A stretch of DNA of 64,000 nucleotides from IMG/VR virus record IMGVR_UViG_3300047160_010653, positions 1 through 64,000 of that record; one strand, given 5' to 3'. Below, piece by piece: positions 55,302 to 64,000 of the stretch (positions are counted from its first letter, which is position 1; each line of letters opens with the position of its first letter). The position numbers were made by a program, and so were the translations under genes. The notes under the pieces are model-generated. The model had not been told where the DNA came from. It saw nothing but the letters and a program-made list of their open reading frames with translations, and did no database searches. Origin of the DNA: a virus (lineage: Duplodnaviria; Caudoviricetes).

Positions 55302-56840
55302 ATGGTTCGCAGAATTGCGATATCGTCGGGACATGGCTTGCATATCAGAGGCGCGCGGGGCAATCCGGTGCCGCCACAGTGCGATGAGGTCGACGAGGCC
55401 CGCAAGATCGTTGACAAGGTAGCCTCGTTGTTGAGCTGCCCCAAATTTCATGACAACATTTCATACGATCAGTCGACCAATCTTCACACGATCGTCGCGT
55501 GGCATGATAAACAGCAGCGTGACCTCGACGTGTCGGTCCACCTGAACGCGACGGCAGGCGCGCACGGCACCGAGGTGCTGTATGTCTCGGACGGAACGAA
55601 ATCGCTAGCGAAGGAAGTTTGCGATGCGATTTGCAAAGCCGGTGGCTTTACAAACCGCGGACCGAAGAAGCGCACCGATCTTTATTTCCTGAACAACACC
55701 GACGAGCCTGCGATCCTGCTCGAAATGTTCTTTTGTGATACCACCAGCGACTGCGACCTCTACCGCAAGAATTTCGAGGCTATATGCTCGGCGATAGCTT
55801 CGTCAATCTCTGGGCAACCTGTCAAAGACGACGCTCCCGGCAAGTGGCCCGAGAACCCACGCGATGTGCCGGTCGAACAACGCTCGACCGTCGCGCGGGG
55901 CGACTACGGCCAGGATGTCACCGATCTGCAGAAGATGCTGCCGCGGTTCATTGGTGAAATTGACGGCGACTTCGGGTCAGTGACCGAGGCCGAGGTACTC
56001 GACTATCAGCGTTCGCGCGGGCTCGTCGCCGACGGCGTTGTCGGGCCGAACACGTGGCACGCACTGTACGATCGGAAACCTCCTCTTCCGCCGCCAGCGG
56101 CGTTCACACAGGCGCAGCAAGATGAAATTTGCCGGATCGCGATCAACTCGCACATCGCCGAGTACGCCTGGAAAAACAGAGGACGTGCGCCTGCTGGATA
56201 CACCAAAGGCATGGCGCTCGCGTTCGCTTCCACTTATCGCAAGCTTCAGCATAACCATCCCGCTGCGATCGACATGGCGAAAGCGCGGGTGAACAGCGAC
56301 AAGGATGCACTAAACCTCTACAAGTCGAAGTTCGATCAACTGGGAATGAACAATGAGCATTCCGGGCCGGATACTCTACGACACCTCTACGCCCTTATGC
56401 TGGGTCATGGAATGCGCGAAAGTAGCGGACGGCACTGCGAAGGACGAGACCAGAGTGCGAGCAACACTAGCAGCGACACTGCGGAGGCTGGGCTTTTTCA
56501 ACATTCTTGGAATTCGCATTCCGCAAGCGATCCCGAGTTCAGCGATCTCATGACTGAATTTTCGACGGGGCAGAGTCCCAGTTACCTTGACCAATTCGCT
56601 GAAGACGTATCATGCAGCACCAGCGACTGGGCTTGTTATGGTTCAGGAAACGGTTACGAGTTCCAGGACCTCTGCAAGACCGCGCCTGCGTTTGCGGTCG
56701 AGACTTGCGCGCTTACATTGCGCAATCTCGCGAACCATTACGGTCCGATTATCCGCGGCGAAACCGAGCTGCGTGAAGATAGCGATGAGATGTTCCGCGA
56801 CGTACAGGCGTATGTCGACCGCCTGGAGGGTGAGGTATGA
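55302..56840 (+). CDS. Endolysin: Amidase_3 + peptidoglycan-binding domain + lysozyme/SLT-like C-terminal domain
   Basis: ISSGHG...E...SVHLNA...GTEV...AILLE.FFCD (Amidase_3); G.DV..LQ..L...DGDFG..TE..V..YQ..RGL.ADGVVG..TW (PG_binding_1); MRESSG...AGLFQ.SWN. Confidence 0.9.
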   Translation: MVRRIAISSGHGLHIRGARGNPVPPQCDEVDEARKIVDKVASLLSCPKFHDNISYDQSTNLHTIVAWHDKQQRDLDVSVHLNATAGAHGTEVLYVSDGTKSLAKEVCDAICKAGGFTNRGPKKRTDLYFLNNTDEPAILLEMFFCDTTSDCDLYRKNFEAICSAIASSISGQPVKDDAPGKWPENPRDVPVEQRSTVARGDYGQDVTDLQKMLPRFIGEIDGDFGSVTEAEVLDYQRSRGLVADGVVGPNTWHALYDRKPPLPPPAAFTQAQQDEICRIAINSHIAEYAWKNRGRAPAGYTKGMALAFASTYRKLQHNHPAAIDMAKARVNSDKDALNLYKSKFDQLGMNNEHSGPDTLRHLYALMLGHGMRESSGRHCEGRDQSASNTSSDTAEAGLFQHSWNSHSASDPEFSDLMTEFSTGQSPSYLDQFAEDVSCSTSDWACYGSGNGYEFQDLCKTAPAFAVETCALTLRNLANHYGPIIRGETELREDSDEMFRDVQAYVDRLEGEV

Positions 56841-57131: not shown

Positions 57132-57425
57132 TTGGGGAATACCGTGGTTGGAGTGATGAACATCAAGCGTTGCGGTGGGTGCCACTTCGCCAAGATCATC
57201 AATCAAGACCTCACGAAACGCCTCTGTCATGGCGCGCCACCGAGCGCTATTCAAATCCCTACGCCCAACGGGCAGATGCGTTTACAGATGGCGCGGCCTG
57301 TCGTGCAGGTCACCGACGAAGCCTGCAGCATGTATCAGGCCAAAACCGGCGCGGATGAAGTGCGCGACAACGAAGCGGTGAAAGCCGCTTACGAGATGGC
57401 GCAGGCACAGGTGATCAAGCAGTGA
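57132..57425 (+). CDS. Small four-Cys protein (CxxC..C..PP..P.V...C)
   Basis: CGGCHF...LCHGAPP...[13 protein letters not shown]. Confidence 0.55.
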
Positions 57426-58939
57426 GCATCTTTAACACTTCATCGGTGCTCGACCCCAGCCTGATCCTCCGGCAAGTGCAGGAAGAGTTCAACCGCGTCT
57501 GGGCCGCGATGGGCGTGGGCGGCAGCGGTGGAGCGCAGGGGCCTCAAGGCGAACCCGGACCGCAGGGCACGCAGGGACCGCAGGGACCGGCCGGTGCAGA
57601 CGGTGCGGTTGGTCCTGCCGGTCCGCAGGGGCTCCAGGGGCCGCGCGGTGTACCAGGGCCATTGGGACCGTCAACGCCTGGGGTTCAGGGACCGGCAGGA
57701 CCGGCAGGGCCACAAGGGCCGCAGGGGGATGCAGGAACTCCCGGGGTTTCTGGCACGGATGGCGCACAAGGTCCAGCAGGGCCGCAGGGCCCGGCCGGGC
57801 CGCAAGGCGATCCCGGGCCCGCGGGCGTGCAGGGCGACCCCGGTCCGCCCGGCAAGACCTGTGCGATTATCGGTTCGTTTTCGAACCGGCAGATTTGGGA
57901 GTTGCCTCCCTCGGGATACATCCCCGCGGATTGGGACAGCCCGGGCAATCCCCCCGCGGGCAATCAGCTCGCCAACGGCCAGGGATTGCTCCACAGCCCG
58001 ACGCAAGAGGTGTGCCTGTGGGTTGGCCCGATGTTGACCTCGGGCTGGGTTGTCCTGGGAGAGGTGCAGGGTCCCGCGGGCTCGCCGGGACCTGCCGGAC
58101 CGGAAGGTCAGGCGGGGCCGTCGGGCGGCCAGGGACCGCCCGGGCCGCAAGGCGTGCAAGGTAATCCCGGCGCTGTCGGTCCAACGGGCAAGGACGGAGC
58201 GCAGGGACCGGCAGGTGCCGCTGGTCCACAAGGGCCTGCCGGGCCTGCCGGTGCCATTGGACCGCAGGGCGGCCAGGGTGTGCAGGGGCCGATGGGCGCA
58301 GTCGGTCCGCAAGGACCGCAAGGCGTGCCCGGTCCGACTGCGGTGTCGAGCGACCCCTCGAACACCGCGACGCTGGGTAGTGACGGCAAGGTGTTCGTGC
58401 CGCTGGCGCCTGCAGGCGGCAACGCCATCCCTCAGATGGACGGCACCGGAGCGGCTGGGTCTAACACGACATGGTCGCGCTCGGACCACGTCCATCCCAC
58501 CGACATCAGTCGACAGCCTGTGAAAGGCACGATTTCGGCTGACAATGCGGCCGCCGGTAACCTCGGCGAGGTGCTGTCGACGTCGGTCACGACAGCGGTG
58601 AACTTGACTGCCAACACCGCGGCGAACATAGGCAGTCTGGTTCTGACTGCAGGCGACTGGGATGTTTCGGGCGTCGTCAACTTCGTCTCGCCCGGCGCGG
58701 CGGCGACCCGCATGGCGGCAGGAATTTCATCGGCATCTGCGACGCTGCCGACACCGGCGCAGATCGCAGCGGGGACGGGGACGCTCAACGACCTGTCGCT
58801 GGTTTTCTCGAAGGCGGCGATGACGATGGCGACCGGCATCTGCCGTTTCAATGTTTCCGCATCGACGACGATCTATCTGATTGGTCTGGGACCGGCCACG
58901 ACTGCGACGGGATACATATGGGCAAGGCGCGCCCGCTGA
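57422..58939 (+). CDS. Collagen-like (Gly-X-Y) fibre protein
   Basis: Two long GPQ/GPA triplet runs separated by a globular spacer; C-terminal SRSDHVHP and beta-rich head. Confidence 0.88.
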
Positions 58940-59127
58940 CCTACGAACCGATAGAGTTTCCCAGAGATTTGCAGCGTTGCGACAACTGCGCCTGTTTCAA
59001 ACGCGATCAGGAAACGCCGGATCGCGGCTGGTGCCGCGCATTTCCGCCGACGGTGCTGGGACCGAACCAGAGCTTCTGGCCATCCGTGTTTGCGATGGAC
59101 TGGTGTGCGAGGTGGACAGCTCGATGA
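58918..59127 (+). CDS. Small four-Cys protein with HiPIP-like spacing
   Basis: CDNCACF...GWCRAFPP...WPSV..MDWCARW. Confidence 0.55.
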
Positions 59128-60713
59128 GCTACGTCAAGATTAAAGACACCCTCCGCAATCTGATCACAGGCCTGGGGCAGATGGGTATCGACCCTTCTGC
59201 GTCAACGCAGTATGTGCTTTATCTACTGCAGCGCGACCAGCTCGAAAATATGTACCGTGGCGATTGGCTAGCGCGGAAAATCTGCGATGCGCCCGCCGAG
59301 GATATGACCCGCGAGTGGCGCGCGTGGCAAGCCAACCAGAACCAGATCGAAGCGATTGAAGCTGTCGAGAAAACGCTCGACATCAAGCGCAAGACCAAGC
59401 AGTGGCTGATCAAGGCGCGGCTGTACGGCGGTTCGGCTTTTGTGGTTGGTGTCGATGACGGGCAGGACCCCAGTCAACCCATCGATCTCGACAAGTGCAA
59501 GAAGGGCTGTCTGAAATACGTCGTGGTGCTGCACCGGTGGGAATTGAACGCCGGGCCGCGCATCTACAATGTAATGGACCCCTATTATACCCGCCCTGCA
59601 TACTATACGGTGGCGACGCCGATGTTTGGTTTCATGGGCGAGAGCGGTGCGACGATGCCGACGCCGTCGGGCACGCCCGAGCCGATCCCTGGCTCGATCA
59701 ACAATTTCATGAGCAAGGTGATTCCGTTTCAGAACCGGCCCGGTAAGCAGCAATCTCAATATCCCAGCACGACGCCAACCAACCTCGGGCTCACGCAGAT
59801 ACACCCGTCTCGCGTGCTGGAAATGCCCGGCAATGAATTGCCGGACTGGCGGCTCGCGCCGCTGGGCGGTGGATGGGGCGATAGCATTCTGCAGACCGTT
59901 GTCGATACCATGACCAGTTTCACGCAGGTGACGCAGTCGATCACTGCGATGGTCAATGACGGCAAGATGGATGTGGTCAAAATTCCCAACATGGCCTCGC
60001 GGCTCACCAATGAAGAGTACAAGAACACGCTGCTGTCGCGGTTCGCCATGTCGGCGCAAAGCAAGAGCGTCATTTCCGCGCTCCTGCTCGATCGTGAAGA
60101 AGAGTGGGAGCGGGTATCGACGCAGTATGGCGGTTTGCCCATGATACTGCACGAGTTCATCACCCTGGTTTCCGGTGCGGCCGGGATACCGGTGTCCCGT
60201 CTGTTCGGTCAGGCGACCGGGCGCGGGCTGGCTGGCGGCTCGACCGGCGGCGGCGCGTCGGGAGGGGAATCCGATCTGAGAAACTATTACGACGACTGTG
60301 CGCAGAAACAGAAAAACGAGATGGCGCCGCGCATGGGTATGCTCGATCAGTTATTGATGCGTTCGGCGCTCGGGACTGATGATCCGAATATACATTATGA
60401 TTGGAACTCATTATGGCAGATGGACCAGGACGAAAAGTCCAAGATCGCGCTTGCCAAGGCGCAGGCCACGCAGATTTATGTTTCACTTGGCATCGTCAAT
60501 GAGGACGCGTTCCGCGAAGGTGTTGTCAACCAGCTGGTGGAGGATGGAACTTATCCTGGTCTCGACGACGCCATCGAGCAGTTCGGGGCCGAGCCTGAAA
60601 TGCCTGACGATGATGGCGGCTTCATGCCGGGGCGTGGCACGCAGGGACCGTCGCCGCCGGAGCCTGATCCGGAACCGGAGGACATCGGTCATTCCGGACC
60701 AGTCGGTGGTTAA
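59124..60713 (+). CDS. Portal protein (DUF1073 family)
   Basis: YRGDWLARKICD.PAEDMTREWR, ARLYGG, IHPSR, GWGDS.LQ, AAGIP.SRLFG, G..GESDLRNYYD. Confidence 0.9.
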   Translation: MSYVKIKDTLRNLITGLGQMGIDPSASTQYVLYLLQRDQLENMYRGDWLARKICDAPAEDMTREWRAWQANQNQIEAIEAVEKTLDIKRKTKQWLIKARLYGGSAFVVGVDDGQDPSQPIDLDKCKKGCLKYVVVLHRWELNAGPRIYNVMDPYYTRPAYYTVATPMFGFMGESGATMPTPSGTPEPIPGSINNFMSKVIPFQNRPGKQQSQYPSTTPTNLGLTQIHPSRVLEMPGNELPDWRLAPLGGGWGDSILQTVVDTMTSFTQVTQSITAMVNDGKMDVVKIPNMASRLTNEEYKNTLLSRFAMSAQSKSVISALLLDREEEWERVSTQYGGLPMILHEFITLVSGAAGIPVSRLFGQATGRGLAGGSTGGGASGGESDLRNYYDDCAQKQKNEMAPRMGMLDQLLMRSALGTDDPNIHYDWNSLWQMDQDEKSKIALAKAQATQIYVSLGIVNEDAFREGVVNQLVEDGTYPGLDDAIEQFGAEPEMPDDDGGFMPGRGTQGPSPPEPDPEPEDIGHSGPVGG

Positions 60714-60785: not shown

Positions 60786-61058
60786 GTGGAAGAGAGATTG
60801 ATGTTCACTGTCATCGGCACACTGTGCGCATTCGTGTTCTCGCATCCCGGTGATATGGCTTTCATCGCCGTCGGATTTTCGATCGAGAACCAGTGCAACG
60901 TGTCGTTGCTGCTGTATCCCGACGGGCCGATCGGGCCATTGGAAATCAGGCCGGGCTCGGGCGAGATGCACACCTTCCGTGCTATCATTGGCCGCCAGCA
61001 AGCCGTGCTTTACGTCGACGGCATGCCGCATCCGATCCCGTTCGGGGTGCCGTTGTGA
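60786..61058 (+). CDS. Hypothetical protein
   Basis: ORF track; beta-rich; between portal and MuF. Confidence 0.4.
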   Translation: MEERLMFTVIGTLCAFVFSHPGDMAFIAVGFSIENQCNVSLLLYPDGPIGPLEIRPGSGEMHTFRAIIGRQQAVLYVDGMPHPIPFGVPL

Positions 61059-61063
61059 GTTTG

Positions 61064-64000
61064 ATGTGCATGTGCGGCCCGCGCACGCGTGTGCGGGATG
61101 CGTATGACCCCGACGAGCCGCGGGACGAACGTGGGCGTTGGACAACATCGGACGAACCTAAGTTGGAAGGCGGACGTTCGCTCAAGGAAGCCGAGGATCG
61201 CGGCATCTTTGAAGGAAGGTTGGGCGAAAAGAAAGAGGTGTCAGGTGGCGAGCGGCAGTTAGTACTGCTCAAACCGACGGACATTCCCAAGGATTGGCAG
61301 ACGATTGAACATCCTAATGGGAAGCGCCTCTACTTCGATCCGAAGCTTGCTGAAGCTTATGAGCTGATCCCGGGCTACGGCAAAGAGTACGCCAAGCCAA
61401 AAGACAAAACGATTGGCGACTTCGATGTGAAGCCTGAGCCCGACAAGATTTATCGTGGCATGAGCTTCGAGGAGTACCAACGAGCGCTGGATCAAGGGTA
61501 CTTTGCCTCCCGTGGCGACTACAATATCGGCGGCGCACAGGAGGGGCTTACCTACTATTCGACCGATCCGCGGCAAGCACAGAGTTACGCGCATGGGTTT
61601 GCGCCTTGGATGTACAAGGCGACGCCGTCGCGCCCTGCGGTGATCGTCGAGGTGAAAGACCCTGGTGAACATGTCGACGTCCCTGGGATCGGGCAGACTT
61701 CGACCGAGGTGGGACTTCGCAAACATGTGCCAATCAGCGACATCACGCGTGTCTGGTTTGGCAAGCCGTATATCGTGCAGGAGCATCAAGTCGATATCCA
61801 TCGGAATTGGAGCGGTAGTCGCGTCGGCGGTGGCACGAGCTATGATGCGTCGGTGCGATGGGAGCAGCAGCATCTAAAGGATGCTGTGACGATTCACATC
61901 GTCTATGACCGCGCGCGGCGAGACCCGCGCGGGCAGGCGGTGCACTACCTCGAAGCCCGGTTCCGGGCCGAGGCTGACCGGCGCTGGCGGCTACTGGCCC
62001 AGACCATTCGCGAGGCGCTGATCACCCACGACCTCCTGGGCCTGAAGGGCCTCAGCCGACTGCCGCATGAGAACAAGGTCGAGGGGTGGGGCTCTTGGTT
62101 GCGGGGCGAGGTCACCCAGAAGATTTTGGGGTTCAACGGGTACTGGACTGCCCCCTACGTGGAAAACGCATCCATGGAGGCTCTAAAGGGCGCCTCGGGC
62201 GTTGCATTTGGGCAACAGTCTACCGATGGGGAGGGGCCAGGGCACCCGTTCCGGGGCAACCAGTACACCAGCGGGGAAGGTGGACTTCCAGAAGAGCCGG
62301 GAACAACGCCGATCCCGGAAGGCCATGTCCGCTTGTATCACCAGACTGGCGCAGAGAACATTGAATCGATCAAGAAGAACGGCTTGACGCTGTCGAGCGC
62401 TAAGGGCATCGAAGGGCCGAAAGCAATTTATGCTGGGGAGACTGGATTTTATCATAAGGTGGGGGAAGAACAGCCGGGACAGATAACAGTCGAGTTTCAT
62501 GTTCCCAAGGAACGCTGGAGTCCGCCGTTCGTGCGTGTCGACAGTCAAGGTCGCGTTGCTCCGGAAAACATCATCGCTGTCCACGAAGCTTGGCACGGAT
62601 CGGCGCGCTATATTGAAAATGACCCAGAAGTCTTACGGGCCACTCTCGCCGGGGAGAATGATTCACTACTTGATTTGCCACGTGAAGGTCCGGCAATTCG
62701 TTACATCAAGGCGAAGCACGCGCGTGACGCCGCGCCCGGCCCTGCCGAGCGTCTCGCCAGCATGAAGGCGCTGGCGGTGTCGGAGCTGAAGGGCATCGCT
62801 GCGGCGTTCGAGCAGCAGGCCACCAGGGTGGTAGCCCATCACCTTTCGTGCAGTTCGCCCCCGTACTGCACGGCCAATGCCCTGGTGCCGATCATCACGC
62901 AATTCCGCAATCGCACCAGGGCGATGGCAGCGTATGTTGTGGCGAAAGCTCACGCCGGGGCGACGTTGGCGGCGCTGCGCAGCCAGGGCGCGACGCACGT
63001 CGACCTGATCCCCGAGCGGGTCGGCCAATGGGGAAAAGTCGGTGATGGCCGAGGGATTTTCCCCATTAACGATGTCGGACCTCCCGACGAGCCGCGTGAT
63101 CTCAGGGGAAGGTGGACGGAAGGTGGCGGAGGTGGGGAGACTCCAGTGAACCGGTTCGTCGAAACCGGGATTGGTTTGATCATCACGCCACCATTGGGGC
63201 TAGGTGACGCGCCGCGCAAGGTCGGGCCGGGAGCGCGTGGCGGGACGTCGGCGCGAACGGTGCGGCGGATCAAGGCGGTGTCGCGCAAGCTGCGCCGAGC
63301 ATTGCCGCAGCGTGTCGACGTGCTCACGGCCGGTGATGACGATGTCTGCCCCAAATGCCAGGACATTGCCGATAGCGGGCCGTACACTATCTCTGAGGCG
63401 GAGGGGCTGATCCCAGCCCATAATTACTGCCGCTGTAGCTTTGTAAAGGCCGGATATGCCAAGGATTTTGACCCCAACGAACCCCGAGCCAAGGATTTCA
63501 ACCCCTATCATCTGCCGTCAGGTCCTGGCGGCGGACAGTTCACGTCGGGGCCTGGAGGAGAGGGTGCGGGCGCGCCCGAATATGTGCGCGAGCTGGCGAA
63601 GCTCAGCGAGCGCGTGCAGGGGCTCGATCCCCGCGTCCTTGCGGTGGGCGGCGATGACTGGAACAAGGACACCGCGATCAGGCTGGAGCGGCAATACCAG
63701 GACGCCAAGCCCGAGCTGGACAAGGTTGTCGACAGGCTGGTGGAGGGGGCCGCTGCCGGTACACAGCATCCGTACATCCCCGAAGAGTGGGACATGATGT
63801 CTCCTGAGGATCAAGAGTCGGTCAAGAGCGCGTGGATGGATTCCACCAAAGACGATTTCAATAGCAGCGAAGTGGACAGCTGGATCGAGAACGGCAACCA
63901 GCTCGACGAGAGCAAGGCGAAGACGGCTCAGGATTACGGTGACAAAGAGCTGCCGAATTGGGCCAAGGACGTATTCGACGAGGTGCGCGAAGAGTACCGC
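61064..64000 (+). CDS. MuF/SPP1-gp7 head morphogenesis polyvalent protein with two ART-like domains; 3' end beyond window; not in ORF track
   Basis: Frame open for 979 codons to the window end. MuF core TAGDDDVCPKC...GPY...LIPAHNYCRCSF at ~63325-63442. ART-like domain 1 IYRGM...YYSTD...TEV. ART-like domain 2 LYHQT..NIESIKKNGL...AIYA. Follows the portal. Confidence 0.85.
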   Translation, partial: MCMCGPRTRVRDAYDPDEPRDERGRWTTSDEPKLEGGRSLKEAEDRGIFEGRLGEKKEVSGGERQLVLLKPTDIPKDWQTIEHPNGKRLYFDPKLAEAYELIPGYGKEYAKPKDKTIGDFDVKPEPDKIYRGMSFEEYQRALDQGYFASRGDYNIGGAQEGLTYYSTDPRQAQSYAHGFAPWMYKATPSRPAVIVEVKDPGEHVDVPGIGQTSTEVGLRKHVPISDITRVWFGKPYIVQEHQVDIHRNWSGSRVGGGTSYDASVRWEQQHLKDAVTIHIVYDRARRDPRGQAVHYLEARFRAEADRRWRLLAQTIREALITHDLLGLKGLSRLPHENKVEGWGSWLRGEVTQKILGFNGYWTAPYVENASMEALKGASGVAFGQQSTDGEGPGHPFRGNQYTSGEGGLPEEPGTTPIPEGHVRLYHQTGAENIESIKKNGLTLSSAKGIEGPKAIYAGETGFYHKVGEEQPGQITVEFHVPKERWSPPFVRVDSQGRVAPENIIAVHEAWHGSARYIENDPEVLRATLAGENDSLLDLPREGPAIRYIKAKHARDAAPGPAERLASMKALAVSELKGIAAAFEQQATRVVAHHLSCSSPPYCTANALVPIITQFRNRTRAMAAYVVAKAHAGATLAALRSQGATHVDLIPERVGQWGKVGDGRGIFPINDVGPPDEPRDLRGRWTEGGGGGETPVNRFVETGIGLIITPPLGLGDAPRKVGPGARGGTSARTVRRIKAVSRKLRRALPQRVDVLTAGDDDVCPKCQDIADSGPYTISEAEGLIPAHNYCRCSFVKAGYAKDFDPNEPRAKDFNPYHLPSGPGGGQFTSGPGGEGAGAPEYVRELAKLSERVQGLDPRVLAVGGDDWNKDTAIRLERQYQDAKPELDKVVDRLVEGAAAGTQHPYIPEEWDMMSPEDQESVKSAWMDSTKDDFNSSEVDSWIENGNQLDESKAKTAQDYGDKELPNWAKDVFDEVREEYR

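Follow-up and report, generated by a model that had tools for sequence, protein, structure and literature searches.

A divergent MuF-like phage head protein that likely carries several ADP-ribosyltransferase-type cargo modules

Introduction

Effectors fused to MuF or portal proteins, and phage polyvalent proteins more generally, are predicted to be packaged and injected, and ADP-ribosyltransferases (ARTs) are the commonest protein-modifying cargo of polyvalent proteins (Iyer et al., 2017, PMC5512222; 2022, PMC9503650). Two MuF-ART toxins, EFV and Bxa, have been shown by experiment to be active ARTs (Jamet et al., 2017, PMC5576092; PMC11699363), and Alt of phage T4 is a head-packaged ART of the R-S-E (Arg-Ser-Glu) type that is injected with the DNA and modifies host proteins (as summarised in PMC5512222). 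Here we describe a related locus in the 73,103-bp IMG/VR record IMGVR_UViG_3300047160_010653 (Caudoviricetes), whose first 64 kb (positions 1 to 64,000) constitute the window analysed in this study. A gene that starts at position 61064 and runs past the end of this window encodes what is likely a divergent MuF/SPP1-gp7-like minor head protein turned polyvalent effector carrier.

We consider it quite probable that this carrier holds three cargo modules, two of which model as ADP-ribosylating enzymes while the third is probably one as well, and that a fourth ART is encoded next door. Below we describe the gene and the scaffold into which its cargo is set, then the modules, and finally the surrounding genes and the related systems.

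Results

Reading frame and modular architecture

The first-pass annotation of the window had reported a frame, described there as missed by the gene track, that begins at ATG 61064 and stays open as far as the window reaches. Indeed, the frame continues beyond 64000 to a stop codon at record positions 65189-65191, giving a product of 1,375 amino acids (aa) from a gene on the forward strand, as are the portal gene, the small ORF and the modules and junctions described below, that spans 61064..64000 and extends to record 65191. The gene is taken to be real since its relatives among metagenomic proteins reach E = 2e-187 (relatives are cited as P-numbers for proteins and L-numbers for loci or contigs). 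Upstream, the same frame has no stop as far back as GTG 60893; we take ATG 61064 as the start because a small 85-aa open reading frame (ORF) in another frame (60801..61058 in the ORF list and the sequence) ends 5 nt ahead of it. This small ORF has no Pfam match, and small ORFs likewise lie between the portal and MuF-like genes of relatives. All the motifs quoted in the first-pass annotation occur in the product: IYRGM at aa 129, YYSTD at 164, STEVG at 213, EARFRAE at 297, LYHQT at 424, AIYAG at 454, VEFHVP at 476, APENII at 499, SELKGI at 573, TAGDDD at 755 and HNYCRC at 786.

BLASTP mapping combined with one hidden Markov model (HMM) per module resolves the product into a junction (J1), cargo A (aa 47-273), scaffold piece MN (279-373), junction J2, cargo B (408-549), scaffold piece MM (554-653), a linker with junction J3, scaffold piece MC (748-808), junction J4, an acidic helical domain (Ch, 852-1123) and a C-terminal ART domain (C-ART, 1128-1371). 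Cargo A (61202-61882) and cargo B (62285-62710) fit the two inserts delimited in the first-pass annotation (~61100-61875 and ~62225-62725). Of the scaffold pieces, MN lies at 61898..62182 (piece HMM E = 1e-42) and MM at 62723..63022 (piece HMM E = 1e-41), while MC lies at 63305..63487, where it carries the MuF core motif TAGDDDVCPKC...IPAHNYCRC and matches a PHROG minor head protein family (E = 9e-4).

The core motif has the form D...C-x-x-C ... P-x-H-x-x-C-R-C and compares with TTDGCCDDCEE...PPLHPNCRC in P0020, whose PF04233/TIGR01641-positive region is matched by the MC HMM (E = 3e-5). Relatives in which the scaffold is contiguous match PHROG head morphogenesis and minor head families; in P0027, for example, the head morphogenesis match has E = 4e-12 and spans profile positions 24-289 of 326. 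Matches to the Alt-like PHROG family occur, among relatives, in P0024 only. The gene is also located between the portal and capsid genes, as expected of a MuF gene.

A fixed scaffold with variable cargo

Comparison of homologues shows that cassettes vary within this scaffold. MN, MM and MC are contiguous in P0004, P0006, P0023, P0024 and P0027. The slot between MN and MM is filled by cargo B in the query, by ART-PolyVal and ParB-like domains in P0021, by GNAT and other domains in P0022, and also in P0015, and the slot between MM and MC is filled by cargo A itself in P0005 and by a Hint/intein domain in P0022. Since some relatives have the same pieces uninterrupted and others have various cargo set between them, we conclude that the MuF-like scaffold is fixed and its cassettes vary; this comparison is the check that the first-pass annotation had proposed. 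We also observe that the Hint/intein-like insertion of P0022 (aa ~707-1196) splits the MuF core motif, so that the MC HMM matches aa 707-721 and 1196-1259.

Each of the three cargo modules of the query also occurs stand-alone or within other architectures. The product thus has the attributes of a polyvalent protein, namely at least two effector-type domains in one polypeptide within a head-gene context.

The module borders are marked by short motifs. J1, DPDEPRDERGRWT (61106..61144, aa 15-27), precedes cargo A, and J2, GHPFRGNQYTSGEGG (62240..62284, aa 393-407), is a variant of the NPYH..GGQF motif, read from the sequence, that precedes cargo B. J3, PPDEPRDLRGRWT (63080..63118, aa 673-685), lies within a Gly/Pro-rich linker (aa 654-747), and it is this linker slot that cargo A fills in P0005. 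J4, DPNEPRAKDFNPYHLPSGPGGGQFTSGPGG (63470..63553, aa 803-830), precedes the C-terminal module. DEPRDxxGRW and NPYH..GGQF motifs are thereby found at every module border of the query. In relatives, all 41 of 41 occurrences fall outside mapped modules, and a six-frame scan of the genome finds the motifs essentially only in three consecutive genes: the MuF-like ORF, the ART gene that follows it and the DUF7178 gene after that. In P0052, a canonical SPP1-gp7 core is followed in the fusion by cargo B, with a similar junction, HPREPGGSGKGGEFTSSG, the counterpart of J2, between them.

We considered whether the motifs are part of the cargo domains and rejected this, as they are present in just 2 of 125 stand-alone cargo B proteins and in none of the seven stand-alone cargo A frames inspected. 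Because stand-alone homologues of A and B do not have them, the motifs are a feature of the fusion lineage and not of the cargo. They may mark places of processing or recombination, or act as targeting signals.

The modules differ strongly in G+C content at third codon positions (GC3). Within the one ORF (61202-65176), GC3 is 0.85 in MN, 0.84 in MM, 0.72 in the helical domain, 0.65 in cargo A and 0.54 in cargo B. The difference between cargo B and the flanking scaffold indicates that cargo B is an acquired cassette. A spread of 0.54 to 0.85 would also be compatible with an assembly chimera or an artefactual fusion of separate genes, an explanation that we regard as extremely improbable. The genome is complete: IMG/VR places the record in the direct terminal repeat class, CheckV gives a completeness of 100, and we find an exact 97-bp direct terminal repeat in the 73,103-bp sequence. 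The ORF, followed beyond the window, has no frame breaks, and independent metagenomic relatives show the same fused architectures and synteny. The concern that the frame might be broken or chimeric just downstream of the window is therefore not borne out.

Cargo A adopts an R-S-E-type ART fold in its model

Cargo A combines an N-terminal beta-rich subdomain (61202..61435, aa 47-124) with an ART-fold core (61436..61882, aa 125-273) that contains R131 (in YRGMS), S166-T-D168 and E215. An AlphaFold2 (AF2) model of aa 40-275, built from a clean 25-sequence alignment, has a mean predicted local distance difference test (pLDDT) score of 90.8 and a predicted template modelling (pTM) score of 0.86. 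Foldseek matches it to CC0527/DUF952 with probability 1.00 (template modelling (TM) score 0.65 on the target, root-mean-square deviation 3.2 over 111 columns) and further to pertussis S1 (0.99), PltA, Tpt1 and TreTu, none of these with E <= 1e-3. The ART matches are confined to model residues 86-236, and the N-terminal ~80 residues, which form the beta subdomain, have no structural match in Foldseek.

The residues expected of an R-S-E active site are conserved. Y-R-G-M-S and E215 are invariant across the 25 sequences, position 166 holds Ser or Thr in every sequence, and D168 shows no variation in the first alignment. The Arg, Ser/Thr and Glu all sit on predicted strands. The start offsets of the alignments put R131 at the position of the Arg that is catalytic in LT-A, pertussis S1, PltA, Scabin and CARDS. 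Cargo A is thus modelled as an R-S-E-type ART fold with conserved Arg and Glu, in agreement with the class first suggested for insert 1 from its IYRGM and YYSTD motifs.

Cargo A has no Pfam annotation. We rejected its assignment to ART-PolyVal, as the PF18760 matches in relatives fall outside the region that resembles cargo A. In 34 viral loci it occurs as open frames of ~235-330 aa, inside proteins of 570-1,300 aa, or in frames longer than 3,000-4,000 aa. Judged from these sequence contexts, cargo A is an autonomous domain. The giant open frames include those of L017 (>4,199 aa) and L018 (>3,231 aa), and cargo A is also seen on contigs the size of jumbo phage genomes (236-430 kb; L015, L016 and L032). 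A tblastn search of cultured phages with the whole protein matched cargo A only, in three cyanophage records, and cargo B is not found among cultured phages at this BLAST level. The three cyanophage records with cargo A are annotated as 'large polyvalent protein' or 'RelA/SpoT'.

The C-terminal module probably ends in a third ART

The first-pass annotation had also noted a third, acidic cargo behind the MuF core. This cargo is present, and it ends in what is probably an R-S-ExE ART, which lies beyond the stretch then in view. The acidic helical domain opens the C-terminal module (63617..64000 in the window, continuing to record 64432; aa 852-1123), and the C-ART follows outside the window (record 64445-65176, aa 1128-1371). 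Alignment A1, of 17 sequences, shows no variation at Y1256-R1257, S1295, E1337 and E1339, with the spacing of R, S-T-S and E-x-E that is typical of R-S-E ARTs. The AF2 model of the module has a mean pLDDT of 75.7, and the acidic region in it is a confidently modelled helical domain. Nearly all of the top Foldseek rows are R-S-E ARTs, with weak matches, including those to toxins of the C2/C3/VIP2 type, the best at E = 0.11; the profile of the module has no match in the PDB or Pfam. Across carriers, the acidic helical domain is almost always followed by a domain of ~250 aa with invariant Y-R, S and E-x-E. The C-terminal domain is probably a third ART, of the C2/C3/VIP2 structural type.

In most carriers of this module (P0007-P0019, from the alignment A1 consensus), a conserved domain lies upstream whose 'DGHH-WAGQ' signature is reminiscent of ParB-like nucleases; the query does not have this domain.

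Cargo B is a probable H-type ART

Cargo B (62285..62710, aa 408-549) is an autonomous domain with five invariant residues, R421, H424, G438, E475 and W508, which are conserved without exception in alignments of 35 and of 126 sequences. With an exhaustive HMMER search we retrieve 371 clusters, formed at 50% identity, with E <= 1e-3; some members stand alone, with a length of 150-190 aa, and others form part of proteins as long as 4,079 aa.

Like H-x-T ARTs, cargo B opens with an H-x-[ST] motif on strand 1 and a helix ending in G-L, in which H424 and G438 never vary and T426 hardly does. The best PDB match of its profiles is DarT1 (E = 0.006 with 35 sequences, 0.0045 with 126), followed by KptA/Tpt1, and the 126-sequence profile finds just four of 177,635 PDB sequences at E <= 10, all of them H-x-T ARTs. 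The strand-helix element aligns to aa 12-37 of DarT1 and to aa 96-118 or 102-122 of KptA; with hhalign, RLYHQT...GL falls on FLYHGT...GL of E. coli KptA (aa 102-122, P = 7e-4). We further note a parallel with the ART core of cargo A in the order of the invariant residues of cargo B (H on strand 1, an aromatic 'IYA' strand, an invariant Glu that opens a strand, and then a 'V-x-P-x-x-I-I' strand).

Family profiles give a fainter picture. Against PF01885 (Tpt1), PF00644 (PARP) and PF22531, cargo B has sub-threshold matches only, and PF01885 finds nothing in six frames of the genome. Weak Pfam matches of cargo B members are to PARP, Tox-ART-HYD1, Tpt1 and DUF7002, all under threshold. Sub-threshold leads from the ESM Atlas include clusters of viral hypothetical proteins, one with PARP in 16% of its members, and Tox-ART-HYD1 (0.83). 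Membership in DUF7002 was rejected (25.2 bits against a cutoff of 27 bits, over profile positions 2-31 only); we found no literature on that family. The earlier assignment of insert 2 to the H-x-T ARTs thus holds for the strand-helix element shared with DarT1 and KptA/Tpt1 and for the invariant Glu, and fails at the Pfam thresholds of Tpt1, PARP and DUF7002. From its sequence, we regard cargo B as a probable H-type (DarT/Tpt1-like) ART.

Evidence against the assignments

Several observations weigh against the reading developed so far, in which a MuF-like protein carries ART modules. The query does not match the MuF profiles PF04233 and TIGR01641, and as a whole it has no match in Pfam even at E = 10, in NCBIfam, or in a phmmer search of the PDB; its PHROG match is limited to the weak minor head protein similarity at aa 758-810. 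The MuF assignment is therefore transitive, through motifs, synteny and relatives. Cargo A does not have a strict ExE or QxE, since its sequences differ at the position two residues ahead of E215. In cargo B, the hhalign probability against KptA is 27%, and the likeness to ARTs spans ~21-27 residues only, plus a weak second segment in DarT1.

The last of these points, together with sub-threshold scores for every Pfam family, would suit the alternative that insert 2 is not an ART at all but an unrelated small alpha/beta domain that shares the 'LYHxT..GL' element, for instance a nucleotide-binding, nucleic-acid-binding or hydrolytic module. Local hhalign comparisons among cargo A, cargo B, C-ART, ART-PolyVal and PF03496 regions return nothing but tiny matches around YRG, and the Atlas scores are leads only; the hhalign result, however, says little because ARTs are highly divergent. 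The exclusive retrieval of H-x-T ARTs from the PDB, the residue order shared with cargo A and the weak matches of family members to PARP, Tox-ART-HYD1 and Tpt1 all speak for an ART, and we judge the unrelated domain to be the less probable, if still serious, alternative.

Another possibility is that the ART modules act as NAD+ glycohydrolases or binders on NAD+-derived immune signalling, or are catalytically degenerate structural domains. ART folds do include NADases (Tne-type effectors), the ExE-less cargo A could be read in this way, and in relatives such modules are accompanied by Acb1 and NUDIX, both of them enzymes that target nucleotide signals. On the other side, Arg and Glu in A, R-S-ExE in C, and His and Glu in B are invariant across their families, which makes degeneration unlikely, and the nearest structural relatives of cargo A (TreX, LT, pertussis S1, Scabin and Tpt1) are transferases. 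We therefore hold the non-transferase explanation to be unlikely, and retain the reading of the modules as ADP-ribosylating enzymes.

Gene context

The gene is part of a head module with the order portal, small ORF, MuF-like gene, PF03496 ART, DUF7178, ChaB+DUF2213, cement protein and major capsid, and this synteny is conserved in relatives on independent contigs. The portal gene (58881..60713) matches PF06381, Phage_portal_3, with E = 4e-86. The major capsid protein is at most ~48% identical to any capsid protein of a cultured phage.

Beyond the window, a stand-alone gene for a 247-aa R-S-ExE ART (record 65160-65903, L002:5160-5903; PF03496, E = 2e-9) overlaps, in the +1 frame, the last 32 nt of the MuF-like ORF. 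The relative of solved structure closest to it is Tre1, an effector of a type VI secretion system (T6SS) (E = 1e-7), and near the N-terminus of the 247-aa protein the NPYH..GGQF motif of J4 recurs as DFNPYH..GPEGGQFTS. The next gene encodes a 489-aa DUF7178 protein (record 65900-67369, L002:5900-7369) with the junction motif DQPRDPHGRW at about aa 33. DUF7178 is also an internal cargo of the MuF-like relative P0006, and for this reason the gene looks like a detached cassette.

These neighbours bear on whether the protein is instead one of the MuF polymorphic toxins as defined by Jamet et al. (2017), that is, a temperate-phage weapon for inter-bacterial competition or lysogeny decisions with immunity genes, rather than a battery for early takeover or counter-defence during lytic infection. 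That family is defined by the fusion of MuF to toxin domains at the C-terminus, which are ARTs in 14% of MuF toxins, and its members EFV and Bxa are active ARTs (PMC5576092, PMC11699363). The similarity of the downstream ART to the antibacterial Tre1 fits the same picture. However, the genes after the ORF are those for the 247-aa ART and the 489-aa DUF7178 protein, with no small immunity-type ORF there; the query holds several cargo modules, including internal ones, as opposed to a single C-terminal toxin; and the anti-defence enzyme Acb1 on the portals of relatives points to counter-defence. Judged from the neighbouring genes, the cargo architecture and the relatives, a polymorphic toxin is a rather improbable reading, and we continue with that of a carrier acting on the infected host.

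Further genes are worth recording. A 929-aa protein (record 67634-70423, L002:7634-10423) combines ChaB, a region weakly matching the DnaJ-type CXXCXGXG zinc finger, and DUF2213/Pa193_gp24; given its placement between the cargo genes and the genes for the cement and major capsid proteins, it is possibly a scaffold or protease fusion. In two related phages (L037:1525-4173 and L038:2499-4556) the portal is fused to the anti-CBASS nuclease Acb1, which is also a cargo in P0008, P0026 and P0029. Between an accessory block and the portal lie genes for an endolysin (Amidase_3 + PG_binding_1) and a collagen-repeat protein, at window positions 55302-56840 and 57422-58939.

Discussion

On the model of SPP1 gp7, Mu F and further MuF-fused toxins, a few copies of the protein would be loaded into the prohead via its portal-proximal scaffold, and would leave the capsid together with the DNA. 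The ART modules could then consume host NAD+ to ADP-ribosylate host proteins, possibly also nucleic acids, at the onset of infection, in the service of host takeover or counter-defence. We infer virion delivery from the position of the gene and from published work, and packaging, ejection, processing at the junctions, enzyme activity and targets are likewise predicted features of this model.

These elements can be joined into a broader, tentative picture that we put forward as a possibility. The MuF-like head domain would serve as a holder of cassettes, with two slots inside it and two at its ends, each bordered by junction motifs that act as recombination or processing signals, and one virion might deliver up to four mechanistically different ARTs from three families without Pfam models. 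In the same picture, insert 2 would represent a new, phage-specific clade of H-type ARTs whose targets, like those of DarT and Tpt1, may be nucleic acids.

Effectors packaged in the head act ahead of all phage gene expression and so decide the first minutes of the encounter with host defences. The locus provides a concrete case of several ART-type enzymes on one carrier. It also brings to light three widespread cargo families (A, B and the helical-plus-ART C) that current profile libraries leave unannotated, and a MuF-like scaffold that tolerates insertion at fixed internal sites, which aids the annotation of metagenomic phages and offers a natural guide to loading cargo into capsids.

Among known systems, the closest in organisation are the polyvalent proteins of Iyer et al., which likewise place several effector domains in one polypeptide among portal and head genes, with MuF and portal proteins as carriers. 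The relatives described here share Iyer-type cargo, namely ART-PolyVal, Acb1 (2H), NUDIX, GNAT and ParB-like domains. Unlike in those systems, none of the three cargo modules of the query matches ART-PolyVal (PF18760) or another Pfam model, and two are of the R-S-E type. The cargo is also set inside the MuF-like domain at two recurrent slots and not just at its ends, an arrangement of which we found no description in the portions of PMC5512222 and PMC9503650 available to us.

The locus resembles EFV and the Bacteroides Bxa in that a MuF-type carrier bears an ART, for which delivery with the phage DNA has been proposed. The MuF toxins of Jamet et al. have one C-terminal toxin, a small immunity gene next to it and a temperate phage as host genome (PMC5576092), whereas here three cargo modules and a neighbouring ART gene are found, with no obvious immunity ORF downstream. 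T4 Alt is a separate internal head protein, in contrast to the MuF fusion seen here, and no sequence relationship between the query and Alt was detected.

At the level of single modules, cargo A shares its ART fold and catalytic layout with the cholera/LT/pertussis group and the Rhs toxins TreX and TreTu, to which it adds the N-terminal beta subdomain. Cargo C shares the layout of Arg, Ser and Glu with the C2-I, VIP2, CDTa, C3 and ExoS group and is always preceded by the acidic helical domain of ~270 aa, and the neighbouring 247-aa ART is akin to Tre1. Sequence identity to these R-S-E toxins is only 10-21%. Cargo B has in common with DarT and Tpt1/KptA the 'LYH-x-T...N-l-x-SI-l-K-x-GL' element that opens the NAD+-binding lobe and a later 'V/I-P-P-x-x-I-I' strand; unlike Tpt1/KptA, it is without an N-terminal RNA-binding lobe and falls below the PF01885 threshold, and the overall similarity is not significant.

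Since polyvalent and MuF-fused effectors and MuF-ART toxins have been published, the concept itself is already known, and the gain lies in the detail and in the new families. What the present locus adds to the described systems is the combination on a single carrier of three ART-type modules that differ in kind, with a fourth ART encoded alongside, cargo placed within the scaffold at recurrent slots, and three cargo families for which profile libraries hold no models.

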